Below are positions 20,820 through 43,501 of a stretch of 43,501 nucleotides of DNA, piece after piece; the first letter of the stretch is position 1; every line of letters begins with the position of its first letter. The position numbers were made by a program, and so were the translations under genes. This DNA is from Clostridia bacterium (GTDB taxonomy: Bacteria; Bacillota; Clostridia; Oscillospirales; CAG-272), in contig JAFSSR010000011.1 of NCBI GenBank assembly GCA_017450885.1, positions 1-43,501 on the forward strand, written 5' to 3'. A model generated the notes under the pieces. It was not told the DNA's origin. It saw only the letters and a program-made list of their open reading frames with translations, and did not search any database.

Positions 20820-23800
20820 TTAATTTGGCAAAGTAGGTTCTGCCGTTCTGATCCAGTTATTATCATACGGATCGCTTGAATTGCCCCATCCAAAGCCATT
20901 GCTCGACGGGTTTTTAGGATATGCCTGACTTGCGGCTGTGTTTGCAGCCGTTTGACTTGCGGTACTGCTTTGCCTACTTCCAGTAATTGTTTTGGTGATG
21001 GGATTGATATCCTGAATAGTCTGTGTAGTAAATGTTTCAGTACTCTCATCGACCATTACCTTGCTCTTTGCCCCAATGATAGGATCTGCCACAAATGAGC
21101 CGGAAACAGTAACTGTATCTCCGGGATTGTACCTTACGCCGTTGATCATCCATCCGACCAAATGATTTACAACGTCATAGGTCGTTGCAGTCGTAGTCTT
21201 GGAATAGGACTTCGTCACACGGGTATAGACTTTGCAAGTAAATGTAGGTGTTGAGTAATAAGTCTTAGTACAAGTACCAGAAGATTCCTCCTTATAACTA
21301 ACTGCGCTTATATATCCCAGATTGGTCTCTGTCGTATTATTAAGAGTCCACTCAGCGTCTCCGGTAGCTTCTACAGACTGACCGGAAATCTCACCGATGT
21401 CCGTGGGAAGAACACATTCAAACGGCAAGCCGTCTTCGCTTATCTGCGCCTCAACTGAAGCATATCCTATCGCTCTTGTAAACGAGATGGAAGGAGGCGT
21501 CTCGTTGGTCTGATGGAACGTAACGGAATGTGCAAGCTCTGCGTTATACGTAACTCCGCCCGACACCACGTTGATACTGCTTACAGTCTGTGATCCTGCA
21601 AATCTACACATCTCGTATGTGAAATCAGAGTCGTCGCACCATCCTCCGTTTTTAGTTGTATCTGTATCGATATGGCCGAATTCTTTTGTATTGCTGAAAG
21701 AACTCGGGCTGAACGAATATGAAGTTGAATTACTGGTACTTGCAGCGTTGGGAACGGTGAACGACGCCGACGTAAACGCCGAACCAATATTCGAAAGAGA
21801 AGCCGTAACTTCGGGCAGAGTGTAGTGTACGACATTTTTATACTCGTTCTCGCCCACCTGTATCTGGTCGCCTGAATTATCTGCGGAAATGTAGGCGTTT
21901 ACATAGTAGTCGTTGAAGAAGTTCTTTACTTGCAGAGTTTTATTGGAATTCCATAGATAATCCTGATCATCGGTCGCCTGATAGATCGTAACCTCCTCCG
22001 AAACGCTCGGGCTTACTCCGGTGATCTTTACAGTAGGCTTTAATGAGTAGACCTGGAAGTCGGAGAAGTTATAGTCAAGGTCGACCTCGTTTCCGTTAAG
22101 ATAAACCTTTCCGGTGACGCCGTATTTACCCGCCAGCAAGCTGTACGAACCGGTCGTATACGGTATACCATTTGAAGTATTGCCTCCCGCGGTCAGATTA
22201 ACGGTAATATTCTCAAGGTCGTTATTGCCCGACCAGCTGTACCCTCCGTTGGGAGCGGTTTTTCCGTCCTTGTAGGTGAATGTCAGCTTAATGGCCAGAT
22301 CATCCAGTTTTGCGTACTCTGCAGTACGTTCAACGCCCGCTTTATCAAAGTAAGTAACACGAGCGGTGACGGTAATATCCGGATTCTGAGCGGCAAGGAA
22401 CAGCCCGTGTACCGTTTCGTCGGTCTTTCCGAGTACAAGGCCCCTCTGTCTTATCGTATACTTGAGATTGCTCTCGGGTCCCTTAGATTTGATCGTGATC
22501 TTTTGAGGCACGCCGTGCTCGCCCGGTCCTACGGAGAAGGTGGAATTATCCGCCATAGTAAGGACAAGGGATTCTACTGTATAATCACCGACATACTGAG
22601 CGGCAAAGTCCTGGCTGACAGACCAGGTCCCGTCGGTCCCGTCCGTGTTGAACTTGATGCTGGGCTTACGTGAATAGCCTGACACGATATATCCGTAACT
22701 ACGATCGGTGTTGTCCACATAGCTCAGATTGAGAGTAATATCGGATACCTTCATTCCGGGAATAGCGCGGCCATCGTTATCAAGCAGGGACACCGACATA
22801 CCCGTTTCTCTTGCCATCTGATGCTCTGACATAAATTCGGAATTGCTGCCGCCGAGATCAGTCGAGCTGCTTACGATCATTTCCAGATTGACCGAGCATG
22901 AGACTATGGTCGAGAGCGGTTCAAAATCGTATCCTCCTTCTCCGTCTGTCCAGACCAGCTTATTACTGATAGTGTGTTCTTGTTTATTAGTATCCATAAC
23001 GTCCCACAAGCTGATGCTCTTGACAGTCCATAAGCCCTCTTGTGTAAGGTCGCCGAATCTTCCGTCTTCAAGCTCCGGACGATATGTGGGAAGATTGATG
23101 TACCATGCGCCGCCGGTATAATAGATCGTGCCTTTCTTACCTGCGTCGGCGCTCTGAACTATCTCATAATCCTCGTTGGAAATACTGTTATGAACTACCG
23201 CGGAAATGAACGCTGTATCGGAGTTGTTGATCCTGATAGGACCGATAAACGCGTCAAGCGAGACCGGAGCAAACTGAACGTTATCCTCTCCGTGATAAGT
23301 GCTTGCCGACGACGTATTATAAGTTACGGGATCGGGGTTCTTGATCGTAAACGTAGGATACGAAGATGCGCTGGTTATCCTGTTGTTTCCGATAGTAACG
23401 TCATAGAATTTATATATACCGGGTCTAATGATAGAAAGCGTACCGGCGTAGTTTAGTTTTTCATTATCCCATTCGAGAGGAGTATCAACTGTATCGGTCC
23501 CGGATCCTCCTCTGGAATAAGTCAGGACCGCCCCGTCCAGATTGGTAAGTTCCTGACCTGAGTTGTCTTTTAGGACCACGGTAACATCTTTTGCAAATGT
23601 TTGATTTGCCACAAAGAAGTCTCTTGTTCCGCTGTCTGTCTCGATCTCCGCCGTAATTCCGACCGACAGTTTCAGCACCTTGACAAACGCCGAGCTATAA
23701 CTGCTCAAATCGAACCACTCGCCGTCTATCACTACGTACTGAAGCGTATACAATCCGGACGTTCCGAAGTTTGCGGTGCCTTCCCATTGCATAGTAACCG

Positions 23801-26570
23801 CGTTGAAAACCATCTTTGCGCTGACGTTATTTCCGGTTGAACTGCTGAACACCGCCCTTACGGAAGAAGAGCTTGTCACCGCTTCACTCGAACCGAAGCT
23901 GATATAGAGGTTCTCCGGATAGTTGTTTGCTGCAGTATATACGGAGGCGTAATTCTCCGGCTCTCCCCACATTACGTATTCCGGGGCAAATCCGGTAATG
24001 CTAACGCTTATCGGATCATTGAGCCAATACTTAACGCCGTCAAGCATGACCTCACGGAGATAATAGTTTCCCGGCGCGTTGAATGTGTATGTTGCTTCCC
24101 ATATCCCGTCGCCCTTGTCAGTAAACGTTTCGGAGGGCATACGTTTACCCTGCATACTGTTGATCGCTCTCTGGAAGAATGCGGAAACGTTTGCGGGGGA
24201 ATCACCCTCGACCGTTAACGTGACCTTGACATTAAGATCGTCTTCTCCGTACACCAGTTCGGTTTTGTTTACCGAGGCGCTTATGACACGCTTTGCATTT
24301 TCGAGAGCATAGTCTCCGGCGGGGTACAATTTTTCAGAAGATGTAAACTGGAAATTGAGCTGACCCTGGATATTGGACGACGCCATAACGTCTTCATTTC
24401 CGAGCATCGAGCCCTCAAGGTATATCAACGCAGTCAACATCGTGGAGACGTTTTTCTGCAAAGGCATGATACCGTATATAGGATTGCCTTCTCCGTCGAG
24501 TACCCGCTCTGAAATATATTCCTCTCCCTCATTGGGTTCTTCACCTTCATTGGGAAGGCGTTTGACCGTCAGCGGTTCTGTGATCACGAGAGGGACCGTG
24601 ACCTTTCCGTTTACGGCGTAATAATCTTCTACATTGAGCTTTGCGGTTGCAAGGAGAACTCCGTCAGCGTCAATAAATACTACGCGGAATGCATCCAGCA
24701 GTTTAAGGAAGCGTCCTTGATCGTCAGGAGAATCGGCATAGAATATGAAACAGCTGCCGCTTCCCTGAGTTGTACTGTCATTGGTGATAAGAAGGTTGTC
24801 GTCATTATCCCAGATACGGTTAGATCCCTGGTACCCGGAAACCGTGGTTTCAAGCTTCTGCTTTTCCGAGGGCGTTCCGATAACCGTTACTTCATTGTTA
24901 GTCTCGTTTCTATACCATTTTCCGTCTTTTCTATAAACGTCAACTTCGATCTCTGTGCCGTTGTGATCTTCTTTTGCGGTATAGAGAGGAACCTGAACTC
25001 CATCCCCGTCATAGCCCATCACTCTTACAAAACGTTCCTCAGCGTCCGCAGCCCCGTCAAGAAGAAGATATGAATCGTCGATATTTGTCCGAACCCAAAG
25101 ATCGAGCGCAAGTCCGTAATTATCGGTCGCTATCTTACTTAGGCCCGGCGTGAGCTGCTTAGCCTTCTCCTCGGCAGAAGCAGAATTTGATTCACTGTAT
25201 GCATTACCGGAAGCGTTTGTCTTAAGATTGGCATTATTAATCTTGGAAAAAAGCGGTACGCCCGACAGGGGTATCGTCATAGTGATATCCATCCTATAAC
25301 TTGCCGGGACGGCAATCTGCTCGAATTGTTTAAGATATCCGTTGGTCAAGACCACATGGGGTGAGTTTGTCATCCCAAGTGCATCTGAAGTACCGATACT
25401 GCTTATCGGCGTACCGTTAACAGTAGCAGTACCGGCGGACGTAAGCCTTGAAATAATATCATCAATTTGTCCGAATGTATATTCCGTATTATTCTGTTCG
25501 CTATCCTCCTTCATCGTCTTCAACGTAGCAAGGTCCTTCCCTGCCTGGGTATAGGATGTAATAAAGTCGGTAAGACCGGTCAATGATACTATCTTGTCTG
25601 TACTGACGGCGTTAACCGTCTTCGTGTTATACTTTGCTTTGTCTCTGCTGATCTCTTCCCAAGTCAATTCAACGTATTCTTTCCCATCGGGAGACAACGA
25701 ATTAACAAAACGCTGGAAGTTGGCAAGCTCCGTAAATGTGGTTTTCTGCAATTCCATTGCTTTATAAAATTCGTTATATAAATTATATATTTTTGCAAGA
25801 TCGGATTTAGATATTACAGTATTCGCAGTCGCGTCTTCATCACCGTTTAATTTTTCCTTGGCTTTTCCGCTGATAACAATAGAAAGCAATGACTTTAATC
25901 CGTTAATATTATCGGCAGACAGGGCTTTCTGTTTATATTGAATGCCAACCGCTGTTATTGCATTTTTGACTCTCTGATTGGCACGGGATATAGTTGTCAG
26001 CAGCGCTTGTGTATCAGCTTCTGCGACTATCTCTTCGTATGCAGCAACAGCCCGAACGCCTTTGTCTCCATCGCCTTCTATAGCCTTAAACTGATAACCG
26101 TCCCAAGACGCAAACATATAGTTTGTATCCCGAGAGGTAATACGTCCGTCCGAACCGTATTCCGCGCCGAACAGCGGGTTATTATTAAGTCCGTCAGCGT
26201 TAAGTGTCGCGGGGCGGAGTGAGATATTCTGGATACCGTAAACCGGGTCAGACAAGTTGACAAGGTTTCCCCACGTAATATTCGCGCGGGCAATATCATT
26301 ATCGACCGCCGAAGAATCACCACGACCGGATGTCGGGTACTCAGTCCCGTCGCCATGTACAAGGGCGATTTCAAGACTGCCGTTTGCAGAAACGGTAGTA
26401 TTGATAGAATTAACTTCCGGTTTAGAAGAAAGAGTGATCCATGCGAAAGTCGCGGATACCATCATCGTGATAGCAACCACGAGCATTAACACAGCTCCGG
26501 CTACACGTTCTTTCATACCCGGGAGACAGCGCTCATATAGTTCTATCTTCTTTTTAGTCTCGGCTCTCAC
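20820..26570 (-). CDS. Giant (1916 aa) SipW-type secreted protein: N-terminal fibre-subunit domain plus tandem Ig-like modules (putative tip adhesin)
   Basis: Signal ...MMVSATFA|WITLSSKPEV; shares NGSLEIAL, TWGNLVNLSD, YGSDGR, DLWVRTN, AFRVVF, IYLEG, LNFQF with other cluster proteins; recurring G.Y.L..V beta modules. Confidence 0.8.
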   Translation of the reverse strand: MRAETKKKIELYERCLPGMKERVAGAVLMLVVAITMMVSATFAWITLSSKPEVNSINTTVSANGSLEIALVHGDGTEYPTSGRGDSSAVDNDIARANITWGNLVNLSDPVYGIQNISLRPATLNADGLNNNPLFGAEYGSDGRITSRDTNYMFASWDGYQFKAIEGDGDKGVRAVAAYEEIVAEADTQALLTTISRANQRVKNAITAVGIQYKQKALSADNINGLKSLLSIVISGKAKEKLNGDEDATANTVISKSDLAKIYNLYNEFYKAMELQKTTFTELANFQRFVNSLSPDGKEYVELTWEEISRDKAKYNTKTVNAVSTDKIVSLTGLTDFITSYTQAGKDLATLKTMKEDSEQNNTEYTFGQIDDIISRLTSAGTATVNGTPISSIGTSDALGMTNSPHVVLTNGYLKQFEQIAVPASYRMDITMTIPLSGVPLFSKINNANLKTNASGNAYSESNSASAEEKAKQLTPGLSKIATDNYGLALDLWVRTNIDDSYLLLDGAADAEERFVRVMGYDGDGVQVPLYTAKEDHNGTEIEVDVYRKDGKWYRNETNNEVTVIGTPSEKQKLETTVSGYQGSNRIWDNDDNLLITNDSTTQGSGSCFIFYADSPDDQGRFLKLLDAFRVVFIDADGVLLATAKLNVEDYYAVNGKVTVPLVITEPLTVKRLPNEGEEPNEGEEYISERVLDGEGNPIYGIMPLQKNVSTMLTALIYLEGSMLGNEDVMASSNIQGQLNFQFTSSEKLYPAGDYALENAKRVISASVNKTELVYGEDDLNVKVTLTVEGDSPANVSAFFQRAINSMQGKRMPSETFTDKGDGIWEATYTFNAPGNYYLREVMLDGVKYWLNDPISVSITGFAPEYVMWGEPENYASVYTAANNYPENLYISFGSSEAVTSSSSVRAVFSSSTGNNVSAKMVFNAVTMQWEGTANFGTSGLYTLQYVVIDGEWFDLSSYSSAFVKVLKLSVGITAEIETDSGTRDFFVANQTFAKDVTVVLKDNSGQELTNLDGAVLTYSRGGSGTDTVDTPLEWDNEKLNYAGTLSIIRPGIYKFYDVTIGNNRITSASSYPTFTIKNPDPVTYNTSSASTYHGEDNVQFAPVSLDAFIGPIRINNSDTAFISAVVHNSISNEDYEIVQSADAGKKGTIYYTGGAWYINLPTYRPELEDGRFGDLTQEGLWTVKSISLWDVMDTNKQEHTISNKLVWTDGEGGYDFEPLSTIVSCSVNLEMIVSSSTDLGGSNSEFMSEHQMARETGMSVSLLDNDGRAIPGMKVSDITLNLSYVDNTDRSYGYIVSGYSRKPSIKFNTDGTDGTWSVSQDFAAQYVGDYTVESLVLTMADNSTFSVGPGEHGVPQKITIKSKGPESNLKYTIRQRGLVLGKTDETVHGLFLAAQNPDITVTARVTYFDKAGVERTAEYAKLDDLAIKLTFTYKDGKTAPNGGYSWSGNNDLENITVNLTAGGNTSNGIPYTTGSYSLLAGKYGVTGKVYLNGNEVDLDYNFSDFQVYSLKPTVKITGVSPSVSEEVTIYQATDDQDYLWNSNKTLQVKNFFNDYYVNAYISADNSGDQIQVGENEYKNVVHYTLPEVTASLSNIGSAFTSASFTVPNAASTSNSTSYSFSPSSFSNTKEFGHIDTDTTKNGGWCDDSDFTYEMCRFAGSQTVSSINVVSGGVTYNAELAHSVTFHQTNETPPSISFTRAIGYASVEAQISEDGLPFECVLPTDIGEISGQSVEATGDAEWTLNNTTETNLGYISAVSYKEESSGTCTKTYYSTPTFTCKVYTRVTKSYSKTTTATTYDVVNHLVGWMINGVRYNPGDTVTVSGSFVADPIIGAKSKVMVDESTETFTTQTIQDINPITKTITGSRQSSTASQTAANTAASQAYPKNPSSNGFGWGNSSDPYDNNWIRTAEPTLPN

Positions 26571-26593
26571 CTTGATTTTCCTCCTTATGCACC

Positions 26594-28006
26594 TTATCCG
26601 TGACGGACGAAAACTATCATTTCCGTCGCGTACAAGGTGTTGTCATTAACAGTCCATGAAAAATTGATTTTGTATGTGCCCGCGGGGACGCCGGCTGTAT
26701 TGAGGGAGATGCAGCCGTCCTCGTCAGACGAAATCGTAATATCCTGCGCGATGTTCCATATCGCGCTGCCGTCCTGCTGGACGACCAGCTTTTCAGCTGA
26801 AAAGTCCGGGGTCACCCCTCCCCAGCTGTACGGCAGCCCGATGCTCGTCTCGTCGGCGACCGCAGTCACCGGGAGCCCGCCTTCCCTGTCCTCGATAGCG
26901 TCTATTTCGCGTATCTCGAAATTGGATGAGTCGGTGTAAAGCTTGAGCGTTCCGCCGTAGTCTGTGCCGGAGATGTCGATCAGCAGGTTTCCTCCGCTGT
27001 CGATATCAATATATCCCGGGTCGTAGAGGAGCGTCCTTGTTCCCTCGAACTCGTAGATCGTTCCCGCCGGGAACTTCTGCGGTTCTATTTCTCCTTCGGG
27101 TGAGATCTTCAATCTCGCCGCTCCGGAAAGAGTAAGCAGCATCGGATATCGCGAGGAGTACCAGCCGAGGGGGTCGGTAAATACTCCGTTGAGGAGGTGT
27201 TCCTCAATGAACTCCGAATTGCGCGTCTCTTCTTTTATCATTTCGACCGAAGCCGTAAGGCTTGAAGTCGCGTCCGTCCAGGCTATTTCAAAGGTCAGCC
27301 TGTCCGGAGTCAGATCTTCCGGTTCTTCGGTCTCGGCGGGGTCGGTCTCCGGCGCGGTGGTTTCCGACACGGTGGTTTCCGGCGCGGTGGTTTCGGGAGT
27401 GTCGATATCGTCGTCGTCTTCGATCATTCCGTCTCCGCCGCCGATTATTTCTTCATCGTCGTCGTCTTCTTCCAATTCTCCGCCGGCTCCGCCGTCGACG
27501 TACCTCCTGTTGGGATCGGCCGTTCCGGTCGTTTCCGCAGGACCGGTGTCTGGCTCTTCCGGTACGACGTCTACCGCTCCGGCGACGGTCGTTTCCGCTG
27601 ATGTGGTGACCGCCGGTCCCGCCGAGTCGCGTATCATCGTCACGGTCAGTTCAACGGTCTGCGATTCGCCTGCCTCCAGCGTTACGTCGGCGCTCAAAGG
27701 ATATACCGTGAACCACTCGCTCTGCGGAGCCGTGACGGTTATCCTGCCGGTGCAGGCCTCCAGCGCCGTAAGGTCGACCGGAATGACTACGCCGTCCCGC
27801 CTCATATCGAGAAGGACCTGCTGTCCGCCGCTTTTTAGCAGCCGGCTTTCGACCTTTGACGCTCCCTGCCTTTCGTAGGGACCGACCTGACCGCTCCAGG
27901 TATCCGTGTTGAGCGTTCTTGCCGAGGACGGAGCAATCAGGCAACCCACACTGCCCGCAAGCAGCGCAAAAGCCGTCAGCCAAGCCGCAGCTATTCTGTT
28001 TTTCAA
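26594..28006 (-). CDS. Secreted protein with acidic/Pro-Glu-Thr linker (accessory fibre component)
   Basis: TTG start with AAGGAG RBS; signal ending PSSA|RT; poly-acidic tract and PETT repeats; beta-rich C-terminus. Confidence 0.8.
   Translation of the reverse strand: MKNRIAAAWLTAFALLAGSVGCLIAPSSARTLNTDTWSGQVGPYERQGASKVESRLLKSGGQQVLLDMRRDGVVIPVDLTALEACTGRITVTAPQSEWFTVYPLSADVTLEAGESQTVELTVTMIRDSAGPAVTTSAETTVAGAVDVVPEEPDTGPAETTGTADPNRRYVDGGAGGELEEDDDDEEIIGGGDGMIEDDDDIDTPETTAPETTVSETTAPETDPAETEEPEDLTPDRLTFEIAWTDATSSLTASVEMIKEETRNSEFIEEHLLNGVFTDPLGWYSSRYPMLLTLSGAARLKISPEGEIEPQKFPAGTIYEFEGTRTLLYDPGYIDIDSGGNLLIDISGTDYGGTLKLYTDSSNFEIREIDAIEDREGGLPVTAVADETSIGLPYSWGGVTPDFSAEKLVVQQDGSAIWNIAQDITISSDEDGCISLNTAGVPAGTYKINFSWTVNDNTLYATEMIVFVRHG
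27325..27402 (-). repeat. 15-nt coding tandem repeat (PETTA/PETTV/SETTA/PETDP/AETEE)
   Basis: Repeated GGTGGTTTCCGG-type units; protein TPETTAPETTVSETTAPETDPAETEE. Confidence 0.7.
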
Positions 28007-28727: not shown

Positions 28728-28728
28728 A

Positions 28729-34824: not shown

Positions 34825-36420
34825 TCAGTTGTTCTTCTTCAGCAGATCGACATATTCCTTGCATATCGGCATCATATTCTTGCCGAAGGTCTTGTCGAGA
34901 TATGCGTTGAATTTCGTGAGCTCGTCTTTCATAAAGCCCAAGCTCAACGACTCGAACTTACGGAGCACCTTCTTCGCCACGATAAAGTCGATTGCCTGTA
35001 TCTCGGTACCTCCGCAGGCGATAAAGCAGGGAACGAAGTCCTTGAGCTGCTTCATGATACGGTTACCGAAAGCAAGGCGGAAGTTCTTTATCAGATACTT
35101 GTTCATATCTTCAAGGAGATCAAGCATCTCGGCGGAAACGGGGAAATCCTTCTTTGCCTGCGCAAAGAGCTCCTCAAGGTGATCCGTGGTGATATGCACC
35201 GGATCGGTAAGCTCGCAGGTAAAGGCGTCGGCGCGGCTGTCGAGGTCGATCGGGATCGCGCGGTCGTAGACCTTGTCCGCGACGGCAAATGTGGAGTCGT
35301 CGTTGTTTATCGTACCGACGAACCAGATGTTGTCGCTTATCTGGATAGTACCGTTGTTTATAAGCGCGGGGTCGTTGTCCCAGGTAGCGGTGACTATGTC
35401 GATCTTCCACTCCTCTTTACGCGGCATTTCGAGTATGGACAGCATTTCCGCGAAGTAGTACTCGACACGCGCGATGTTCATCTCGTCGAGAATGACAAAG
35501 TGCGGGTCGCGGTAGAAGTTGCCCTCGTAGATGGCGCGTAGGAAGTCGGTCTCCATATACTTCCTGGTAAACTCGTTGTAGTAGCCGTAAAGCTCGGTAC
35601 GTTCACGCCAGGACGGCTGGACCGAGCAAAGCGTGGTGTCTATGCCGACGAACCGTCCGAAGGCGTACGCAAGCGAGGTCTTACCGGTACCGGATATACC
35701 CTGAAGTATCAGTATGCGCGCCGCGCCCATCGAGGCGACGTAATAGCGCATCATATCGATATCGTAATAGAGCTTGAGTTGTGAAGCCGCGTACTTTCTG
35801 AATCTCTCGCAGAACTCGGAAAGCGTGATCTCGTTGTCGTAGACCGGCGGCTGATATTCCGTCTTGTAGTAGTTGTCGACGGTGGTCAGGCGGAAGAAAC
35901 GGCTGTCCTCCGGATTGACGCAGGGAGACTGCATCGTATTGCGGTTGGCGTTGGGGACAAAGCTGTCGCCTTCTTCCTCTCCGTCCTCCCCTTCGTTCTC
36001 CGAACCGTCCTTGAGCTCGTCCTCAAGCTGGTCCTGAGGGATGCCCAGCTCGGCGACCTTCATCTGAAGGAGCTTGTCTTTTTCGTAGTTGGCGCGGAGC
36101 AGATCGCGCTGCAAATTCTTGACCTGCTTTGCCAGCTCGTCGTATTTCTTTACCGAAACACGGAACCGAAGCAGCTTTTTAAGCAGCTTGAAGACAAGCC
36201 AAATGACCACGAGAGCGACTGCTATCAGCACGACCTCGGTGATGATGAGGAACACCCACTCGAGAGTTGAAAAGTCGGGGGCGTACTCGCGGATGAGGTT
36301 AAGTCTCTCCGGGAAGTTGAACAGCATCTTGAAAAAGTTGAAAATACCTACGAAGATATTCCAGAATGCCTTTCCAAGCTCGCCGAGATCAGCCGCGAGA
36401 TATTTCAAAAAGTTACCCAT
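34825..36420 (-). CDS. McrB-like AAA+ NTPase with N-terminal membrane anchor and coiled coil
   Basis: Walker A GISGTGKTS, VQPSW....L.GYYN, Walker B ILDEMNIARVEYYFA, GTINNDDST, DKVYDRA, FGNRI. N-terminal TM (WVFLIITEVVLIAVALVVIWLVF). Confidence 0.88.
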   Translation of the reverse strand: MGNFLKYLAADLGELGKAFWNIFVGIFNFFKMLFNFPERLNLIREYAPDFSTLEWVFLIITEVVLIAVALVVIWLVFKLLKKLLRFRVSVKKYDELAKQVKNLQRDLLRANYEKDKLLQMKVAELGIPQDQLEDELKDGSENEGEDGEEEGDSFVPNANRNTMQSPCVNPEDSRFFRLTTVDNYYKTEYQPPVYDNEITLSEFCERFRKYAASQLKLYYDIDMMRYYVASMGAARILILQGISGTGKTSLAYAFGRFVGIDTTLCSVQPSWRERTELYGYYNEFTRKYMETDFLRAIYEGNFYRDPHFVILDEMNIARVEYYFAEMLSILEMPRKEEWKIDIVTATWDNDPALINNGTIQISDNIWFVGTINNDDSTFAVADKVYDRAIPIDLDSRADAFTCELTDPVHITTDHLEELFAQAKKDFPVSAEMLDLLEDMNKYLIKNFRLAFGNRIMKQLKDFVPCFIACGGTEIQAIDFIVAKKVLRKFESLSLGFMKDELTKFNAYLDKTFGKNMMPICKEYVDLLKKNN

Positions 36421-36456
36421 AGTTACCTCGGTGACGCCGCTTTGCGCGGCGGAATG

Positions 36457-37431
36457 TTACTCTGCCTTAGGGGCGTCTTCGCCGTTTTCGGTGGGAGCTT
36501 CTGCGGGCTCCTCGTTCTTCTGTGCGGCAAGCTCCGCCATTATCTTGGCGCGAAGTTCAGCTTCCATCTTTTCACGCTCTGCGGCAGCTTTTGCGGCTTC
36601 CTCCGCGGCGATCTCCTCGGCGGACTTTTCCGCGGGAGCGTTGCTTTCAAGCAACTCCTTCTTCAGGCGTTCGCGCAGTTCGGATTCCAGCTTTTCGCGT
36701 TCCGCCTTTTTGGTCTCCTCGAACTTCTGCTTCTCCTCGTCAAGCATATCCTCTGCGGTGCCGCGCTCCTGCTCGTAGCGGAGACGGTTCTTGACGTTCT
36801 GGTACTCGAAGAGCACGCGGAAGAACTGAACGAGGTGGAAGAGGAAGAATATTGCTACCGGGATAACGACTACAACAAGGAATCCGGTAGAGGTCTGCAG
36901 GAAATCGAACACCTTGCCGGCGCCCTTGATCCTGGTTCCGCCTACGTCCTTGTCGCCTTCTTTGGTAGAGTAAAGACCGACGACCTCTGACTCGTGAACG
37001 GTCAGCGGGTCCTCGTTGGTGTTGTTATCACCCTTTGTGGCAAAGATGAGATAGTTTCCGCCGTCGTAGATCTGGAAAATTCTGTGCGTATTAAGAACAC
37101 GCTCGCCGTCGATGACGGTCCAGTAGGTGATGATATCGCCGACCTTGAGAGTCTTGGTGTCCTTAACGGCCTTATCTATAATGAGGTCGCCGGGTTCAAG
37201 GGTCGGATACATTGATTCGGTCTGGATACTGAGTATCGAGCGTCCGAAGATGCTGGGTACTCCGTTGCCTGACGTGCTGACGAAAGAGACGTAGGTTGCG
37301 ACCGCAGCGATGATTATCGCGATGACAAGAATCACGTTGATAATAATGTTGGCGATCTTTTTGCCCTTCTTGACCTCTTTTTCGGGTGCGTTGTCTTCAG
37401 GAACGTTTGTCTGGTCGTATTTCTTTTTCAT
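36457..37431 (-). CDS. sipW: Signal peptidase I, SipW/ER-type (copy 1) with long charged cytoplasmic tail
   Basis: TM, IQTESMYPTL (Ser), NTHRI (His), TKGDNN..EDP, second TM, ~115-aa E/K/A-rich tail. Start MKKKY at 37431 (AGGAG RBS). Confidence 0.9.
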   Translation of the reverse strand: MKKKYDQTNVPEDNAPEKEVKKGKKIANIIINVILVIAIIIAAVATYVSFVSTSGNGVPSIFGRSILSIQTESMYPTLEPGDLIIDKAVKDTKTLKVGDIITYWTVIDGERVLNTHRIFQIYDGGNYLIFATKGDNNTNEDPLTVHESEVVGLYSTKEGDKDVGGTRIKGAGKVFDFLQTSTGFLVVVVIPVAIFFLFHLVQFFRVLFEYQNVKNRLRYEQERGTAEDMLDEEKQKFEETKKAEREKLESELRERLKKELLESNAPAEKSAEEIAAEEAAKAAAEREKMEAELRAKIMAELAAQKNEEPAEAPTENGEDAPKAE

Positions 37432-37500
37432 GAAATATCTCCTTCCTATGATTAACAAACCTAAAAGATATTTATAAATTACGGAATGATCCGTTTATTT

Positions 37501-38493
37501 TCAGGGTATGTCGTCCATACCGGACTGACCGGAGTAGTCGACGTGGAACTGTATGCTTGCCAGGATCTCAGCCTTGTCGATGCGCGAAATGCAGTCGACG
37601 TCCTGACCTTCGAGCCAGATATAAAGCTCTATCTTGACCTTTCCTCCCGATTCGAGCGGGAAGAGCTCCTTGTTGGAAACGAATCTGCCCAGGTCCTTGA
37701 TCGTCACCCCGCGCTGAACGGGATCGGCCTCGGTCCAGGTGGACCTCTCCTGCAGGATCAGGTGATCCGCGTTGATAAGCGTCTCGGAACCGTCGATGCT
37801 GGGGGTAGGCGTGTATCCGGCCTCACCGCTTTCATGCCCGTTACAGTTGGGCTCATAGATAAAGAACTCGGGGATGCCTCTCGGCTGACCGGACTCCGCG
37901 TCGACCGGGGTGATGCGGAAACCGAGACGTATGGCGGTCTCCGCTCCGGCGCCTCCGTCGGAGTGGATTATCCTTTGCGGATCCCAGACCGGAGTGCCTA
38001 TGACGTAGGTCCCGGCGCCGTTCTCGCCCTCGTTGACCTCGACTGCCTCGGCGAGCGAGACCTTGCAGGGAGAAAAACTCCTTGCGTAGAAGGTCCCCAC
38101 GACGTAGTACCCGTCACCGTCCTGACGATTGGCGTTGCGCTCGTCGGTCAGCTCGATCCAGTTGCCGGTCGAGCGGCCGTCAAAGCCGTACTGGATGGTG
38201 ACAAGGCTCTGTCTGGCGTTCGACCATGTGGCAGGCTTCAGCGGATAATCCTCGCTTACCATATCAAGGAAGTCGAGCCTCTGTCCCCACTCCTCGTCCG
38301 GAGCGTCGTATGCCAGCGCAAGCTCCAGTCCGGAGTCGGCGTTGACGTAGAGCGCCATATCGTTGACGTGCGGCGTCTGCGACAACGCGAACCACGTATA
38401 GGTTGCGGCTACCAGCAAAACCGACAGGGCGATAAGGATCCACAAATATATAAAAGTTCTCTTTTTCCGGTTTCTTTCGGCGTCTTTTTTCAA
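37501..38493 (-). CDS. SipW-type secreted fibre-subunit paralog
   Basis: TTG start at 38493 with GAGG RBS; ...LVAATYT|WFALSQTPHV, GLELAL, LKPATW, YGFDGR, AIRLGF, FFIYEPN, IWLEGQDVDC. Confidence 0.85.
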   Translation of the reverse strand: MKKDAERNRKKRTFIYLWILIALSVLLVAATYTWFALSQTPHVNDMALYVNADSGLELALAYDAPDEEWGQRLDFLDMVSEDYPLKPATWSNARQSLVTIQYGFDGRSTGNWIELTDERNANRQDGDGYYVVGTFYARSFSPCKVSLAEAVEVNEGENGAGTYVIGTPVWDPQRIIHSDGGAGAETAIRLGFRITPVDAESGQPRGIPEFFIYEPNCNGHESGEAGYTPTPSIDGSETLINADHLILQERSTWTEADPVQRGVTIKDLGRFVSNKELFPLESGGKVKIELYIWLEGQDVDCISRIDKAEILASIQFHVDYSGQSGMDDIP

Positions 38494-38555
38494 AATTGAT
38501 TTCCTCACAAAAATGCGCGCGGGTGTCTTTTCCGAAGAGGTCCGTGTTGCAGGAC

Positions 38556-38700
38556 TCAGCTGCGTACGCAAGCGCGAGGGGTCGCGGTTGTGTACGCGGA
38601 TCGGTCCTGCGGACCGACCACAAACGCCGCTTCGGCTATCCCCCATCCGAAGCGACGTTGCGTCGGCTGTCCCACACTCCCCGGGGGAGGGGAGTGTGGC
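38556..38700 (-). other. Highly structured intergenic region (consecutive stem-loops)
   Basis: Minus strand CCACACTCCC/GGGAGTGTGG; CCGAC..CGTCGCTTCGG/CCGAAGCGGCG..GTCGG; a third hairpin GCAGGAC..GCGTAC/GTACGC..GTCCTGC extends to about 38548. Confidence 0.6.
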
Positions 38701-38742
38701 TTTGCCGTTTAACCTAAAGGCTAAAGAATAATTTTTGATTAA

Positions 38743-41214
38743 TTAGCTGAGAAGATCTGCAAGTGTTCCGCCAGCATTCACGAAAGCGCCGGCAAGCGCT
38801 GTGAGCTCAGTCTTGTAGTTTTTATCAGCAACTTCAGTTACCTCATTTGCAGTATTAACTGCGCTAATAAGGTTAGTCTGAGCCTCGGTCTTGTTTTCAG
38901 CTGCAACTGCAGTTGTATAAGTGCTGCTGCTTGTAACCTTACCGAGAGCAGTTGTGAACTGTGCGAAGGTCACATTGTCCGGAATAGTGGGAGTGTTCTG
39001 GTTCTGGTTACCAGACTCGCTTACTTCTCTCATACTTCTGACGTCCATAGGCTTAAGTTCGGCACTGCTCTTGAACTGGATATTGAGCTTACCGGACATT
39101 GAAGTCTTAGCGTTAGCGACCATAGTATTGTCAACATAATCGCCATCAAGGTAAACAAGAGCGGATACCTTCTTTGCCTTGTTCTGCTGAAGGGCGCAGA
39201 GAGTGTTGTCGGCAACTGTCTGATCGTTTTCGTCGGTAGTAGTCTTCTTGGTAGTGAGAGTTACCGAGTACTCTTTGTTTGCAACGATCTCAGTAACAGT
39301 AGAATTGAACAGAACGAGCTTAGCCTTGACGGTATCTTCGCCTATCACGGAAACAGTATCGCCGGCAGTAACGGTGCGTGCTCCGGAAACATCGTCAGTT
39401 CCGACCTTAATGTCAGGAGCTGCAACGCCGAGCACCTCGTATCCGGAATTGTCATTATTAGGCGAGACAAATACAACTCGAACGGCGCTCATCAAAGCCT
39501 TAACGTCTTCAAGGCTGAAGAGATCGACATCGGCAGTCGAGAACTGCAGATAGCTTCCGCCGCCCTGAGTGCTTTCATTATCGAAATTCTCTTCATCGTA
39601 AACACGCTGTGAACCGTCGACGTCAAGCAGCAGGTTGGAACCGGCAGCATTGGTGCGAACACCGAAGTCGATGATATATCCGTAAGGATCGTCCACCGTA
39701 AGGGTACCGCCGGAAACAGGGTCGCCCGCGGCGCCTTCTCTGGAAGCGCTGGTAACGTAAGCTACAGTAGGACCGTCTTCGCCGACCTTTGTTACTTCGT
39801 GAGTTTCCTCGTCTTCTACGGTCGGAGCAACGTACCCGATGACCTTGGTGACCATCGTTGCAGGCAGATCTTCGACAGCAATGCCGTTGAACTCAGCCGT
39901 AAGAGTCAAGCCGGACGCGGTGTAATCTCCGACGAGGGCAGCGATATCGGCATATATACCGGAGCCGGGATTCATCTCAACAACGATCTGATTCTGTGCA
40001 ATGAGGTTAGAAGCAACAGTTCCTACGTCAGCGGTGCCAGGATTTCTGACTCCGTTGACAGTCAGATATTCCTTATCAAGAAGATCTCCGACGCCGGATG
40101 TTTCGGCTTGACTATACGTACTGCCGACGGTCAAGCTACCTATTCCATCCTGAGCGTTTGAGAACGCGGTCTTGAGGGCGTTATACTCTTCAATAGCTTT
40201 GTGGATCGCGGGAGTCGCTGTTGCGTCGATAGTTACGCCGAGTTCGCCAGAAAGACTGTTATCGGTGATCGTAGTCAGACCATCGACATTTTCGATCAAA
40301 GTCCGAACATCGGTATCAGTAAGCTCCGCGCTATTGGCGCTGCTCAACGCATAGGCGAGAGCGACCGACTTTATCGCGTTGCCGATAGAGTTGATCGATT
40401 TACCGAGATTAGTGATAACAGCATTCAGTGCGTTGACATCTTCTTGAGTTAACGCATAATTCGGATCCTGTACGGAAGCAAGGACCATGTTGGCCAGCTG
40501 TTGACCGTTGTCAACCAGCGATTTCTGCGCATAAGTCTTTGCGGAGTTAATATAGGTTATAACCCCGGCAGTCGCCGATCTGTAACTGGAAACACGGAAA
40601 GTAACTCCGGACGAAACGCCGACTACACGGACGCCGCCAAAATACTCGTTATCGCCAATAGCTTTGAAAGCGCTACCGTCATACTTACCGACTGTGGTAG
40701 CCTTCTGGACGTTGATGACACGTCCGTCGGAACCATAGTTGGGAGCAAGAAGCAGGGTGTTCAGTCCACCCGTGATTCCGACGTCAGAATTCTCATTGCC
40801 GGAAGCAAGGGTACCCGCACCGGAAAGATTCATAGCGGCAGGGTTGAGGATCATATTCTTGAGTCCGTATGAAAGATCGCTGAGGTCTACAAGGTTACCC
40901 CATGTCTCATTGGACTCTTTAACGTCCTTTCCCTCTTTGGCCATAGAATCGCCGATATCGGATAAAATACCAAGGTTGTCGGTAGTATCCATAAAGGACC
41001 TATTATTGAGCAGCGCTATTTCAAGGTTGCCGTTAGCACCAATATTGGTGGTGATACCGGTGACCTCGGGAGCGGTCGACAGCGTGAACCACGCGTAAGT
41101 CGAGCCGACCATCATGATCGCTGCGATCAGAAGCATGCACAGTGCGGCGGCAAACTTTTTACGGATGTCTTTAGGCATCTGAATTTTGCGCCGGCTGTTT
41201 GCGGTGTTTGTCAT
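38743..41214 (-). CDS. SipW-type secreted protein, 823 aa (candidate major fibre subunit)
   Basis: ...MMVGSTYA|WFTLSTAPEV, NGNLEIAL, TWGNLVDLSD, YGSDGR, DFGVRTN, AVRVVF, VYLDG, LNIQF; AAAGGAG RBS. Confidence 0.88.
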   Translation of the reverse strand: MTNTANSRRKIQMPKDIRKKFAAALCMLLIAAIMMVGSTYAWFTLSTAPEVTGITTNIGANGNLEIALLNNRSFMDTTDNLGILSDIGDSMAKEGKDVKESNETWGNLVDLSDLSYGLKNMILNPAAMNLSGAGTLASGNENSDVGITGGLNTLLLAPNYGSDGRVINVQKATTVGKYDGSAFKAIGDNEYFGGVRVVGVSSGVTFRVSSYRSATAGVITYINSAKTYAQKSLVDNGQQLANMVLASVQDPNYALTQEDVNALNAVITNLGKSINSIGNAIKSVALAYALSSANSAELTDTDVRTLIENVDGLTTITDNSLSGELGVTIDATATPAIHKAIEEYNALKTAFSNAQDGIGSLTVGSTYSQAETSGVGDLLDKEYLTVNGVRNPGTADVGTVASNLIAQNQIVVEMNPGSGIYADIAALVGDYTASGLTLTAEFNGIAVEDLPATMVTKVIGYVAPTVEDEETHEVTKVGEDGPTVAYVTSASREGAAGDPVSGGTLTVDDPYGYIIDFGVRTNAAGSNLLLDVDGSQRVYDEENFDNESTQGGGSYLQFSTADVDLFSLEDVKALMSAVRVVFVSPNNDNSGYEVLGVAAPDIKVGTDDVSGARTVTAGDTVSVIGEDTVKAKLVLFNSTVTEIVANKEYSVTLTTKKTTTDENDQTVADNTLCALQQNKAKKVSALVYLDGDYVDNTMVANAKTSMSGKLNIQFKSSAELKPMDVRSMREVSESGNQNQNTPTIPDNVTFAQFTTALGKVTSSSTYTTAVAAENKTEAQTNLISAVNTANEVTEVADKNYKTELTALAGAFVNAGGTLADLLS

Positions 41215-41299
41215 TTTGTGTTCTCCTTTCGGAATAAGTTAGATACGTGTTTTTGCTCCCGCCGGAGCGTTCGGTTGTTGGTCAAATTCATACCGCGCA

Positions 41300-42871
41300 T
41301 TACGGATTGACACTATCGTGTGCAGCAGTGACCGCTTCATTAAGCTGAGCGATCAAAGCACCGAGCTGCTCGGAAGAATACTCGTCATACCCGTTTGCAG
41401 AAAGCCCGTCTCTGATCGTTTCATAAAGAGTAATAAGGGCTGTCTGCTCCTGCGTAGGAGTTTCGGCTGCTGTTGCGGTGTTGTATTCCGATTCCGCATC
41501 ACCGTAGGCTGTTGCGAGTTCACTTACCGTATAGGTATGAGGAGTCGGAGTCGGCTCAGGCGTGTTGTTCTCAGTCACAGCGGCTGGAGGATTTTCCTTC
41601 AGATCGGTATTCTGAGCCGGAACGAGGGTGATGTCAGTAGCGAACTGGAGGTTAAAGACCGCTTTGTCAAGCACGTCGTTGGAAACCGCCATGTTTGCGT
41701 TGGTGACCGCCTCGCCGTCAAGCCAAACGATCGCACTGATCTGATAGGAGGTGTTCTTCGCCATCGAGTCGAGGATGACCGTGGAATTGGTAGGATTGCC
41801 GGAATAGTCACAGAGATAAAGATCACCTGTACTAAGGTTGGCACGCGCGTATGAAAGAACTCTCGCATTTCCAACGTTCTGGGCATTGCCGAGATTCTGA
41901 ACAAACGCGACCCTGATCGCTTTCAGGTACTGAGAAGCAACGTTCTGGTCATCGCCTTCAACGTTTTCACCCTGGTCGTTCTTGAACCAAAGATTGCTGC
42001 CGTTTCCACGTGTGATATCCGAGCTGCTGTCGGTATAAACACGCTGCGCATCCTCTACCTGAAGAAGAAGCTTTCCGTTGGATACGGTATCTTCCGACTT
42101 GTTCACCGCATTGAGACGGAGCGCCAGGTCGATCACATAACCGTAGGTCTCGCCATCTTCATCCACTATCACACGTACGCCGTATCCGGTTCCGGTGTAT
42201 TCGCCGCTTTCGGAATTATAGGACTTAAGATCGGTGTTAATGAGATCGACAATTCGTCCGTCGAAGCCAAATTCGGGAACCGAGAAGATGTGTTCCCCAA
42301 GGGCTCCGGTGGGAACCTGAGTAATTACCTTCTTTGCATCATCAATAGTATAGAATTCTTCGCTATTGGCTTTTTGAATGTAATTACCTTCGTTGTCCTG
42401 AATGGGGTCGCCATCTGCGTTTACGTAAGAGGTATAGGCTGAAGCGCCTTCTCCCACTGTAACTGTAACGAACGCTTCGTTATTTGCCATGACGGCATTC
42501 AGTTTTGCGGGTTTAAGCCAAACGTCTTCAAGTCCGTATGCCGCATCATTGAGGTTTACGATGTTTCCCCACGTGATGTTAGCATCAGCAGGCAACTTGG
42601 TCCCTCCTGCGTACGTACCCGAATCGCCACGTCCGGATTCAATATCACTAAACAATCCGGTTGAGGGCATAAGGGCAATCTCAAGACTTCCGTTGCCTAC
42701 CACCGACGTATCAATACCGCGTACTTCGGGCGCCGTGGAGAGTGTGAACCACGCGTAAGTCGAAGTGACCAGCATGACAGTGGAGATCAGCAACATGACG
42801 AGTGCCGCGGAAAGACGACGCTTAATGGAAACGGTGCTCTTTTCTTTCCGCTTTGTTGTGGAATTTGCCAT
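41300..42871 (-). CDS. SipW-type secreted protein, 523 aa (fibre-subunit paralog)
   Basis: ...MLVTSTYA|WFTLSTAPEV, NGSLEIAL, TWGNIVNLND, FGFDGR, DLALRLN, AIRVAF, VWLDG, FNLQF. Confidence 0.88.
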   Translation of the reverse strand: MANSTTKRKEKSTVSIKRRLSAALVMLLISTVMLVTSTYAWFTLSTAPEVRGIDTSVVGNGSLEIALMPSTGLFSDIESGRGDSGTYAGGTKLPADANITWGNIVNLNDAAYGLEDVWLKPAKLNAVMANNEAFVTVTVGEGASAYTSYVNADGDPIQDNEGNYIQKANSEEFYTIDDAKKVITQVPTGALGEHIFSVPEFGFDGRIVDLINTDLKSYNSESGEYTGTGYGVRVIVDEDGETYGYVIDLALRLNAVNKSEDTVSNGKLLLQVEDAQRVYTDSSSDITRGNGSNLWFKNDQGENVEGDDQNVASQYLKAIRVAFVQNLGNAQNVGNARVLSYARANLSTGDLYLCDYSGNPTNSTVILDSMAKNTSYQISAIVWLDGEAVTNANMAVSNDVLDKAVFNLQFATDITLVPAQNTDLKENPPAAVTENNTPEPTPTPHTYTVSELATAYGDAESEYNTATAAETPTQEQTALITLYETIRDGLSANGYDEYSSEQLGALIAQLNEAVTAAHDSVNP

Positions 42872-42997
42872 TTTGTTTCTCCTTTCGGAATTGATTTTCT
42901 GCGTGTTTTTCCCCCGCCGGGGTATATATTAGTCGCTTTGGGGGAAGCGAGTAATATCCTTTTTCCGGTCCCGCTCTCGCGGGTGAAGCGATGGTCG

Positions 42998-43501
42998 TCA
43001 TCCTGTCGTCTGAGCCTCGCTTCTCTTAAGACGGAATGTCATCATAGTGCCCAGGTGTCCGCCTATCTTGGAGTTGTCGGTGTCGACGTCGTCTCCTTCA
43101 AGCCAGAGCACCACGGTGTACTTATGCACCTCCTTCTGTTTGACCTGCGTCTGTCCGCCCTGCGCTATCAGCGTGGGCGAGATGAACTTGTCAGGTACTA
43201 TGCGGTAGTAGGTCACGCCGTTTGCCGAACGGACGACCTCAAACTGGTCGCTGTCGGGGGCAAGCTGCATGATCGGCAGATCTATGTATCCACGGGTGTC
43301 GTCGTCCTTGGGGGGCAGCGCCTCCGCCTCGCCCGTAGTTGAGTTGGCGTGAGCGTAGAAGCGCATCTTGCCGTCCTCAAAAAGCATCACCCAGGCGGCT
43401 GTCGAAAGGTTAAGGCTTTCGGAAGTGAGCTCAAGATCCCACTCGTAGTCGACTATGCTTTCGCCCTCGTTGCGGATGTAGTAGGTGTAAGCGAAGTACT
43501 C
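42998..43501 (-). CDS. Fibre-subunit-like paralog, C-terminal part (5'-truncated by window)
   Basis: Frame open to the window edge (EYFAYTYYIRNEGES...AAWVMLFEDG...); YTVVLWLEGDDVDT matches the WLEGxDxD motif of the cluster proteins. Confidence 0.8.
   Translation of the reverse strand, partial: EYFAYTYYIRNEGESIVDYEWDLELTSESLNLSTAAWVMLFEDGKMRFYAHANSTTGEAEALPPKDDDTRGYIDLPIMQLAPDSDQFEVVRSANGVTYYRIVPDKFISPTLIAQGGQTQVKQKEVHKYTVVLWLEGDDVDTDNSKIGGHLGTMMTFRLKRSEAQTTG

Follow-up and report, generated by a model that had tools for sequence, protein, structure and literature searches.

The stretch of DNA analysed here, hereafter the window, is the whole of a 43.5-kb contig (43,501 nucleotides; JAFSSR010000011.1) from the 2.2-Mb, 235-contig, 91.6% complete assembly GCA_017450885.1 of a Clostridia bacterium. 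It carries a cluster of genes for secreted proteins, two SipW-type signal peptidases and an McrB/McrC-like pair that we interpret as a putative surface-fibre operon of the kind named CoCoPALM. The left 17.9 kb of the window is occupied by ordinary housekeeping genes, and every sizeable gene from 17984 to 43501 lies on the minus strand, to which all window coordinates below refer unless another strand is given. In the order of transcription from the right edge, these are an incomplete edge gene, genes for proteins of 523 and 823 amino acids (aa), a 381-aa open reading frame (ORF), SipW copy 1, an AAA+ protein (531 aa), a DUF2357 protein (615 aa), a 443-aa protein, SipW copy 2, proteins of 699, 219, 470 and 1916 aa, an Lgt-like protein and a BspA-type leucine-rich-repeat protein.

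A similar cluster recurs in other genomes. We examined the best 80 of 149 stretches encoding relatives of these proteins in species-representative genomes, which form 77 loci (the related loci), and classified their ORFs by best hit. The recurring order is an edge-class gene, an optional 523 type, the 823 type, the 381 type, the first SipW, the McrB-like gene, the DUF2357 gene, the 443 type, the second SipW, the 699 type and sometimes the 219 type. An edge-class orthologue is present in 75 of the 77 loci, always as the first gene of the cluster, and the 823 type occurs in all 15 related loci listed. Component counts, taken in the 47 related loci of at least 20 kb, place SipW, McrB-like and DUF2357 genes in 44 loci each, the 699 type in 34, the 219 type in four and the 470 type in none, while at least three members of the subunit family described below are found in all 47.

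The initial annotation of this sequence had proposed that one conserved subunit scaffold, recognised by a series of short sequence blocks, is reused in six paralogues. A motif search located all of these blocks, in the proposed order, in three proteins. The first is the 523-aa protein (41300..42871), a short-form or A-type subunit with a predicted signal-anchor at residues 1-40, a conserved mature N-terminus, a beta core reaching to about residue 415, a Pro/Thr linker and a C-terminal three-helix bundle. The second is the 823-aa protein (38743..41214), a long-form or B-type subunit in which the core is split by an insert and followed by a C-terminal helical tail. The third is the 1916-aa protein (20820..26570), a giant or E-type subunit with core and insert in residues 1 to ~745 and then a beta-rich extension of ~1170 aa, for which a PDB sequence search returned nothing. 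In the edge protein, by contrast, WLEG was found, but not N.QF. The trio is also connected, well above chance level, in phmmer comparisons of the mature parts, with E-values scaled to 1e6 sequences and matches at 2e-13 to 6e-24 (523 vs 823, 4e-22; 523 vs 1916, 6e-18; 823 vs 1916, 2e-13). None of the paralogues had a Pfam, NCBIfam or PDB sequence match when the proteins of the locus were scanned.

The 381-aa ORF (37501..38646; C type) and the 443-aa protein (31561..32892; D type) gave no pairwise phmmer match to the 523-, 823- or 1916-aa proteins and are tied to them through profiles. The former corresponds to the 330-aa protein of the initial annotation; its true start is probably later, the orthologues being 328-375 aa long. 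A hidden Markov model (HMM) built from 523/823-type sequences only matched 60 of 63 orthologues of the 381 type and all 46 of the 443 type, in both cases mainly via the N-terminus. In hhalign comparisons with the 523/823 type, the 381 type reached 98.3% over 101 columns and the 443 type 98.0% over 52 columns, and the two types aligned to each other at 99.8% over 310 columns, as full-length homologues.

The edge gene (42998..43501), which encodes the C-terminal 167 aa of a protein of ~340-400 aa, behaves differently. The same HMM matched none of 75 edge-class orthologues, and hhalign connected the class to the C-terminal part of the 381 type only (83%, E 9e-6, 89 columns), scoring 0.4% against the 523/823 type. 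Full-length orthologues begin with a long basic region on the cytoplasmic side, continue with a single membrane helix and carry a beta domain on the outside, without an AWFT motif, which makes the edge protein a candidate uncleaved membrane anchor. Because the HMM misses the class, the hhalign link is C-terminal only and the N-terminus is different, these comparisons indicate that the edge protein is not a sixth copy of the scaffold. The proposed paralogy thus holds for five proteins, two of them (381 and 443 aa) by profile only, and only in part for the edge protein, which has another architecture. Describing the scaffold as reused was also an overstatement, since the copies are old, distinct orthologous groups at fixed operon positions.

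We modelled the 523-aa protein with AlphaFold2 from a 58-sequence alignment, obtaining a predicted local distance difference test score (pLDDT) of 87.2 and a predicted template modelling score (pTM) of 0.72. The model comprises a membrane helix (residues 14-45), a beta-rich core (53-412), a disordered Pro/Thr linker and a three-helix bundle (449-521). A fold search with the whole model was swamped by matches to the three-helix bundle, and the core (residues 41-420) was hence folded and searched alone, yielding an almost all-beta model with pLDDT 88.6 and pTM 0.87. Against 48,161 PDB representative chains, no chain stood at Z 5 in the first pass, and the rows were then realigned. The best four were a plant hexosaminidase domain (8k2h_B, Z 5.0, 133 aa), the TasA fibre (8aur_A, Z 4.9, root-mean-square deviation (rmsd) 4.1, 150 of 233 residues), the cannulae of Pyrodictium (9h8b, Z 4.8, 121 aa) and the Sulfolobus acidocaldarius thread (7pnb_A, Z 4.7, 142 aa). 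Lower ranks held chaperone-usher pilins and lectin domains (Z 4.2-4.4), carbohydrate-binding modules (Z 4.0-4.2) and AbpA (7ueg, Z 3.8, rank 20). The fold-search tool itself notes that a Z under 8 may be just a common arrangement, and Foldseek returned nothing at E<=0.001. On this model, the core is a much-decorated beta-sandwich without a close solved relative, and the placement of donor-strand filament subunits in three of the four best rows is suggestive, though not significant.

Two further parts of the 523-aa protein stand out in the model. Its C-terminal three-helix bundle (41309..41527), a FIVAR- or Fap1-NR-alpha-like fold match, superimposes on Fap1-NR-alpha (3rgu_A) with Z 8.6 and rmsd 2.6 over 75 aligned aa and also resembles other adhesin bundles, and an orthologue (P0005) carries Pfam FIVAR. 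At a second site, between the L.PA and FGFDGR blocks, an extra segment (42269..42511; residues ~121-201) appears as a 57-residue insertion after HMM column 129, with 79 residues between columns 119 and 142, and is modelled as a long beta-hairpin arm with strands 121-134 and 181-201 at high pLDDT. In a contig from one DNA run (X1) that spans the 523-aa gene, 293 bases at the 3' end (window 41268-41562) are replaced by 97 other letters, and a 457-aa relative (P0001, 99% identical over 85% of the query) fits such a 3'-end variant. The C-terminal three-helix-bundle tail seems to vary between strains.

The most conspicuous difference between the forms lies between the GVR and YG blocks. These fall at residues 231-233 (GVR) and 243 (YGY) in the 523-aa protein, at 194-196 and 511 (YGY) in the 823-aa protein, and at 171-173 and 485 (YGL) in the 1916-aa protein. 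The short gap reported for the 523-aa protein is borne out, at 9 residues rather than 8 (hairpin GVR-(9 aa)-YGY, 42137..42181), as is the insert of about 310 residues at the same site in the long forms: by motif positions, it measures 314 aa in the 823-aa protein (residues 197-510; 39685..40626) and 311 aa in the 1916-aa protein (residues 174-484; 25119..26051). The 523-aa model puts GVR in strand 232-236 and YGY in strand 242-253, and the insertion site is thereby predicted to be the turn of a beta-hairpin in the core.

The position of the insert is consistent across the family. Local profile matches break at HMM position ~184, between GVR (columns 174-176) and YGY (columns 190-192), in the 823- and 1916-aa proteins and in a 2043-aa paralogue on another contig of the same genome (C194), in 55 proteins encoded by the related loci (gaps of 102-426 aa, median 281) and in most two-stretch matches among the 150 representatives listed. 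The program hmmalign put the big insert after column 129 instead, which we treated as an artefact, since local hmmsearch domains and the GVR and YG motifs agree on ~184; we attribute the misplacement, on the same footing, to the extra segment of the 523-aa protein, which would have opened a permissive insert state in the HMM. Of 487 family members, 141 have 100 or more additional residues at the site (222-317 aa, median 275).

The initial annotation had called the insert swappable, and unrelated or recombining domains may be pictured as cassettes that exchange at one permissive site of a polymerising core, in the manner of flagellin hypervariable regions. At first sight the two inserts of the window encourage this idea: they are barely alike pairwise (24% over 117 residues, E 0.03), a word-based search with the 823-aa insert found two homologues only, and insert lengths span 222 to 317 aa. 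An insert profile seeded from the 823-aa insert, however, matched 107 of 142 inserts in its first round and 140 of 142 in its second (E<1e-3) and none of 142 shuffled decoys, and the 1916-aa insert was already recognised at E 3.3e-8 when it had yet to be added to the profile. The inserts also have a motif in common, GSGVYADIA...GDY. By these profile searches, the inserts are one homologous domain family. No Pfam family was matched by more than one of 48 inserts scanned, the insert profile gave weak matches to coiled-coil chains only in the PDB (best E 0.0026), and an ESM Atlas search with the 823-aa insert gave nothing usable. The coiled-coil matches are the one hint that the insert may be largely helical, as the initial annotation had proposed.

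Comparison of orthologues further separates a fast-evolving domain from an exchanged one. Between the 823-aa protein and its closest orthologues (P0122 and P0123), the core is 58-63% identical, the insert 0.37 and 0.35, and the tail 27-39%, with a conserved island in the insert (GSGIYADIA..LVGDYTASGL) at 64-66% identity. Pairwise identity among 53 long forms of species-level loci averages 0.49 in the N-terminal part of the core, 0.43 in its C-terminal part and 0.23 in the insert, and the insert is less identical than the core in all 1378 pairs, which supports the earlier proposal of a variable domain in a conserved core. Over bins of rising core identity, insert identity climbs through 0.17, 0.22, 0.31, 0.45 and 0.62, and therefore points to vertical co-divergence rather than cassette exchange. 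Membership of nearly all inserts in one family, together with this bin-by-bin tracking, contradicts the term swappable and leaves the cassette explanation highly improbable; the data instead suit a domain that is inherited vertically and evolves fast.

Contigs of four DNA runs over the 523- and 823-aa genes were near-identical or fragmentary and gave no strain-level comparison of insert and core. In two runs (X1 and X2), depth rises ~3- to 6-fold at window 40950-41100, with several mismatching contigs at 80% likeness, because this stretch encodes the conserved signal end, AWFTLS and NGNLEIAL, on which contigs from paralogues or other species pile up.

In flagellin, a hypervariable D2/D3 domain is carried in a hairpin of the conserved helical D0/D1 core, and the initial annotation had drawn an analogy to this arrangement. 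The analogy survives in part. As in flagellin, a fast-evolving domain sits in a hairpin, with the chain passing out of the core and back into it at a single point; here, however, that core is beta-rich, the inserts are all homologous rather than swappable, and the secretion route is another one. Membership of the flagellin family itself was rejected, there being no Flagellin_N or Flagellin_C Pfam match and the core being almost all beta.

We inferred a quick maximum-likelihood tree of the cores, with the insert removed, from 120 random rows of 337 classified proteins, leaving out 217. Within the main clade (523/823/1916 type), 44 of 45 short forms make up one clade with a Shimodaira-Hasegawa-like approximate likelihood ratio test support of 100, surrounded by long and giant forms (enclosing nodes 95 and 86), and the remaining short row clusters with long forms. 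Giants fall into two distinct clades, both supported at 100. Rooting relies solely on the 381- and 443-type rows, which the length filter had labelled 'short'. On this tree, we tentatively read the short form (523-aa type) as having lost the insert. The same genome holds a second giant paralogue, a 2043-aa open frame (contig C194:4357-6687, minus strand) split at the same profile position, and a second McrB-like gene (contig C115:60-1601, plus strand; E 4.6e-188 to the McrB-like profile), and given these two genes it may hold a second locus of the CoCoPALM kind.

Among the other components of the operon, the McrB-like AAA+ GTPase (531 aa; 34825..36420) is the best conserved, at 63-74% identity, followed by the DUF2357 protein at 48-60%. 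The GTPase has a Walker A motif (GISGTGKT), a Walker B motif (LDEMN) and the NxD-type signature INNDDS, and the Walker motifs and N372 N373 D374 D375 are invariant in 18 of 18 orthologues. Its profile aligns to E. coli McrB (6hz4_A) with E 3.8e-4 over residues 232-389. A hydrophobic helix at ~55-78 followed by a heptad-like stretch can be read from its sequence, a membrane helix and coiled-coil-like segment in which Pfam recognised no FtsB/DivIC family at E<=0.01. The DUF2357 protein (615 aa; 32929..34776), which carries the McrC N-terminal domain (PF09823, E 1.3e-5, 25 bits vs a cut-off of 23.3), has a C-terminal half of charged ERERIRAEK-type repeats; a Pfam scan found no nuclease family in it, and the McrC-like profile matched nothing among PDB sequences.

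This combination resembles the system that Bell et al. (eLife 2024, PMC11090510) named CoCoPALM, to which the paper devotes one paragraph, deferring its analysis to a later paper. In that paragraph, CoCoPALM denotes an NxD-type McrB GTPase clade fused to an FtsB-like transmembrane and coiled-coil domain. The likeness extends to the NxD signature with its second D, to the N-terminal membrane helix and coiled-coil-like stretch of the GTPase, to a DUF2357 McrC homologue with a charged, coiled-coil-like half in which no nuclease was detected, and to the associated signal-peptidase-family genes. The CoCoPALM passages of the paper hold no secreted subunit family, core, insert domain, pair of peptidase orthologous groups or edge anchor class. 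A literature search returned the name CoCoPALM in no microbial paper beyond Bell et al. and its preprints, and found no description of the subunit family in the library searched.

McrBC systems are described in the same source as restriction systems (PMC11090510), and with homology to McrB and a DUF2357 domain the pair could on the face of it be an anti-phage defence system with the secreted proteins as unrelated neighbours. Yet the pair sits between subunit and peptidase genes, in fixed order, in the 44 of 47 loci counted above, the McrC-like protein is without a detectable nuclease and the GTPase has a membrane helix, and the defence explanation is extremely unlikely. On the grounds of this conserved placement, a defence island was rejected as the reason for the presence of the pair. 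A sortase-dependent pilus was likewise rejected, with no LPXTG-type motif near the C-termini of 10 proteins and no sortase among the 33 window ORFs scanned.

In 73 of the 77 related loci, a 491-aa protein with HD_5 and EAL domains is encoded directly upstream of the edge gene (for example L028:7392-8867, plus strand), which suggests a cyclic di-GMP (c-di-GMP) input. The window ends before the position of this gene. An orthologue was not found in the rest of the 91.6% complete assembly, where the best match, on a different contig, is an HD protein of 27% identity. A GGDEF diguanylate cyclase gene (10994-12157, plus strand; Pfam E 1.3e-31) lies within the window, ~9 kb from the locus and on the opposite strand.

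The two SipW-type (archaeal/ER-type) signal peptidase I genes, copy 1 (36457..37458) and copy 2 (30776..31561), score 84.6 and 95.3 bits against TIGR02228, above the equivalog cut-off of 51.85 for signal peptidase I, and copy 2 forms its own orthologous group at a fixed operon position. Both proteins show SM..P, THR and GD motifs, which we take to be the catalytic Ser, His and Asp. Copy 1 has a long charged C-terminal tail, ~100 aa of Glu/Lys/Ala-rich repeats similar in composition to the C-terminal half of the McrC-like protein. The signal-anchors of the subunits end in (S/T)x(Y/F)A|W, with small residues at -1 and -3 before W, and their STYA|WFTLS...NGSLEIAL is a variant of the SipW-cognate signal of the TasA/camelysin family, in which A is followed by (A/W)F(T/N)D and a first strand ..G(T/S)(L/V)(D/E)(L/I). 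From these sequence features we infer cleavage at A|W. It is conceivable instead that the N-terminal helices stay uncleaved in a membrane-anchored coat, in which case the SipW homologues would be chaperones that assist assembly without catalysis, comparable to streptococcal SipA. In supplementary file 2 of Bell et al., one row labels the associated peptidase-family protein SipA-like (HHpred 4N31_A, E 8e-8; PMC11090510), and the edge class clearly keeps an uncleavable anchor. The copies here, in contrast to that chaperone label, pass the model for a catalytic signal peptidase, and with the sequence motifs of the peptidases and the small residues before W also speaking for processing, an uncleaved coat appears improbable.

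The mature N-terminus exposed by the predicted cut is the part of the subunits most reminiscent of TasA. Clostridial Peptidase_M73 proteins (n=20) start ...GATxAWFTD...FTAGTVEI, and the subunits here start ...STYAWFTLSTAPEV..NGSLEIAL. In hhalign, the subunit family aligned to the M73 proteins at 81.7% (E 1.1e-5), over 48 N-terminal columns only. As a lead only, the nearest named ESM Atlas cluster of the signal-less core is PF12389 (score 0.83), the Peptidase_M73 family of TasA and camelysin. In the 523-aa protein, the first 11 residues after the predicted SipW cut (WFTLSTAPEVR; codons 42719..42751) are the best-conserved stretch, at 0.94 vs 0.48 elsewhere and rank 4 of 370 sequence windows, and at the same time the only part that the core monomer model leaves unplaced, with pLDDT below 50. 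High conservation combined with the lack of a place in the monomer is what is expected when the partner is another chain, and it is this that makes the stretch a candidate donor strand. In TasA, the 11 residues at the start of the mature protein (28-38) serve as the donor strand, and fibres form poorly when it is deleted (PMC9674648). The corresponding 11 residues of the subunits occupy the same position, and by this analogy polymerisation via an N-terminal donor strand would be the best reading.

A stronger resemblance to the M73 family is found in the 699-aa protein (28729..30828), which has an AWYTN signal motif, a TasA/camelysin-like N-terminal domain and a probable beta-helix. In hhalign it aligned to the M73 proteins at 92.9% (E 3.8e-7) over 88 columns, reaching the PGD...N.G motifs of the M73 body. 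It also shows a weak Pectate_lyase_5 match in Pfam, and a comparison with PDB sequences gave noise only (E 0.18). The small secreted 219-aa protein (28068..28727), with an AYARYR motif after its signal helix, reached 50% against M73.

The distal part of the cluster contains the 470-aa protein (26594..28006), acidic, of low complexity and lineage-specific, which has a lipobox-like ...AGSVGC near its N-terminus, and the Lgt-like gene (20022..20750; PF01790, E 9e-16), which follows the 1916-aa gene. The guanine-cytosine content is 0.45-0.49 over window positions 18000-26000, which hold the leucine-rich-repeat, Lgt-like and 1916-aa genes, vs 0.52-0.57 in the rest of the operon, and because of this lower value the distal adhesin-like module may have a different history.

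The subunit family is widespread. Of 8000 candidates scored in a word-based search, 775 proved to be related to the 523-aa protein; among the 120 relatives listed, most are of ~380-400 aa, and two bear NCBI names as proteins of Clostridia genome bins. At E<=1e-3, an exhaustive profile search returned 3850 cluster representatives, 1195 of which also passed E<=1e-30. The related loci belong mostly to Oscillospiraceae, Lachnospiraceae, or bins assigned to Clostridia or Eubacteriales, and many of their isolate or contig names point to the gut of goat, sheep, deer or buffalo. Among genomes sampled evenly across the class, the subunit family was found in 6 of 201 at E<=1e-10, the own genome included, the McrB-like protein in 11 of 200 at E<=1e-30, and PF12389 in 20 of 200. 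Four genomes (G150, G199, G172 and G147) encode an McrB-like protein at E 1e-95 to 1e-182 and gave no subunit-profile match at E<=1e-10; other CoCoPALM variants may use different subunit families.

Taken together, we read the region as one CoCoPALM-type operon, a surface-fibre or pilus-like gene set of uncultured gut and rumen Clostridia, to which we assign a probability of roughly 0.55. The five genes for the 523-, 823-, 443- and 1916-aa proteins and the 381-aa ORF encode old, diverged paralogues of a secreted beta-sandwich subunit with an N-terminal signal-anchor. One of the two SipW-type peptidases would cut at A|W and free the almost invariant N-terminal strand WFTLSTAPEV, which would then enter the beta-sandwich of the next subunit, as in TasA, joining the paralogues into a fibre. 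The insert of ~310 residues is one ancient domain in a hairpin turn of the core; its rate of change, roughly double that of the core, is the behaviour of an exposed surface, and the 523-aa short form most likely lost it. More speculatively, the edge protein, with its uncleaved helix, could be a membrane anchor that accepts but cannot donate a strand, and the 1916-aa protein could be an adhesin. Equally speculative is that the membrane-tethered McrB-like GTPase and its McrC-like partner, acting on the cytoplasmic face, gate or power processing and assembly, perhaps in a cytoplasmic complex that is formed with the charged tails of the McrC-like protein and SipW copy 1 and gates processing.

Several results count against a TasA-like fibre. 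Sequence likeness to the TasA family ends after the signal, the AWFT motif and the first strand; PF12389 matches none of 15 locus proteins at E<=0.01, and no subunit passes any NCBIfam model. A six-frame search of the own genome with PF12389 also gave no match, with the B. subtilis control positive. The fold matches of the core are weak, and a glycosidase domain (8k2h_B) ties with TasA. To our knowledge, TasA-type fibres need no NTPase (nucleoside triphosphatase), and the role of a GTPase pair is without precedent. The proposed loss of the insert, itself tentative, depends on a quick tree rooted by very long outgroup branches (5.2 and 5.7). Finally, conservation of the N-terminal strand could stem, alone or in part, from recognition by the peptidase.

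This last point is central to a different account, in which the products are SipW-processed surface proteins that do not polymerise, single adhesins or matrix proteins possibly held by the edge protein, whose N-terminus serves peptidase recognition. The confinement of TasA likeness to the signal region would agree with it, as would the FIVAR-like bundles, the giant 1916-aa protein and the pectate-lyase-like match of the 699-aa protein, all of which resemble adhesin modules, and in the fold search the scores of carbohydrate-binding modules are on a par with those of filament subunits. Conservation nevertheless runs 11 residues past the predicted cut and covers the next strand as well, farther than recognition by a type I peptidase would usually require. 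The four to six different paralogues kept in fixed order in related loci also suit a heteropolymer better than redundant adhesins, and donor-strand filament subunits fill three of the four top fold matches. We regard the non-polymerising account as rather unlikely, and continue to favour a donor-strand fibre.

The closest described counterpart of such a fibre is the TapA-SipW-TasA system of B. subtilis, which has in common with the present locus a dedicated SipW-type peptidase, a mature start of the form A|(A/W)F(N/T) and a beta-sandwich subunit (Boehning et al. 2022, PMC9674648); the weak match of the core to the fibre form of TasA (Z 4.9 over 150 aa) adds to this likeness. The subunits here differ in being 1.5 to 8 times larger, in failing PF12389, in occurring as 4-6 fixed paralogues and in carrying a 310-aa hairpin insert and FIVAR-like tails, next to a GTPase pair that TasA systems lack. 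Like the present locus, the BsaA/BsaB-SipW-BsaC operon of C. perfringens is a clostridial SipW operon with several TasA-like paralogues, for which Kivimaki et al. (bioRxiv 10.1101/2024.11.04.621531) propose heteropolymers formed by donor-strand exchange. The Bsa proteins, however, are small and belong to one profile-defined family with TasA, and their secretion is tied to type IV pilus genes rather than to an McrBC-like pair (bioRxiv 10.1101/2024.11.04.621531). Archaeal donor-strand filaments (cannulae, 9h8b; Sulfolobus 0406 threads, 7pnb; Pyrobaculum pili of AbpA, 7ueg) are built, like the core, from extracellular beta-sandwich subunits, but their fold scores are weak, they show no sequence similarity and their subunits are much smaller and without an insert.

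The system itself was thus already named, as CoCoPALM, but unstudied, and what is new is the anatomy of its subunit family: one core, one ancient hairpin insert diverging about twice as fast, a short form that probably lost this insert, a second insertion site and a distinct anchor-like class. A bolder interpretation, which we offer tentatively and with less confidence than the fibre itself, is that CoCoPALM operons build a new Gram-positive pilus. This would be a TasA-like donor-strand heteropolymer whose processing and assembly at the membrane are gated or driven by a hexameric McrB-type GTPase, physically coupled via coiled-coil tails to the SipW peptidases and a membrane-anchored base subunit, with probable c-di-GMP control, proposed because an HD/EAL-type protein precedes the cluster in nearly all related loci, and with the insert as an exposed, diversifying face turned toward host, phage or neighbouring cells. 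If true, TasA-class fibres would gain their first NTP-dependent route of assembly, and McrBC a role outside defence. That a nuclease-less McrBC-like GTPase is linked to the subunits poses a question of mechanism, since TasA-type fibres are not known to draw on energy when they self-assemble. If fibres do form, they would constitute a major unrecognised surface structure of commensal Firmicutes, and the fast-evolving insert would be the part of it seen by hosts, phages and neighbours.

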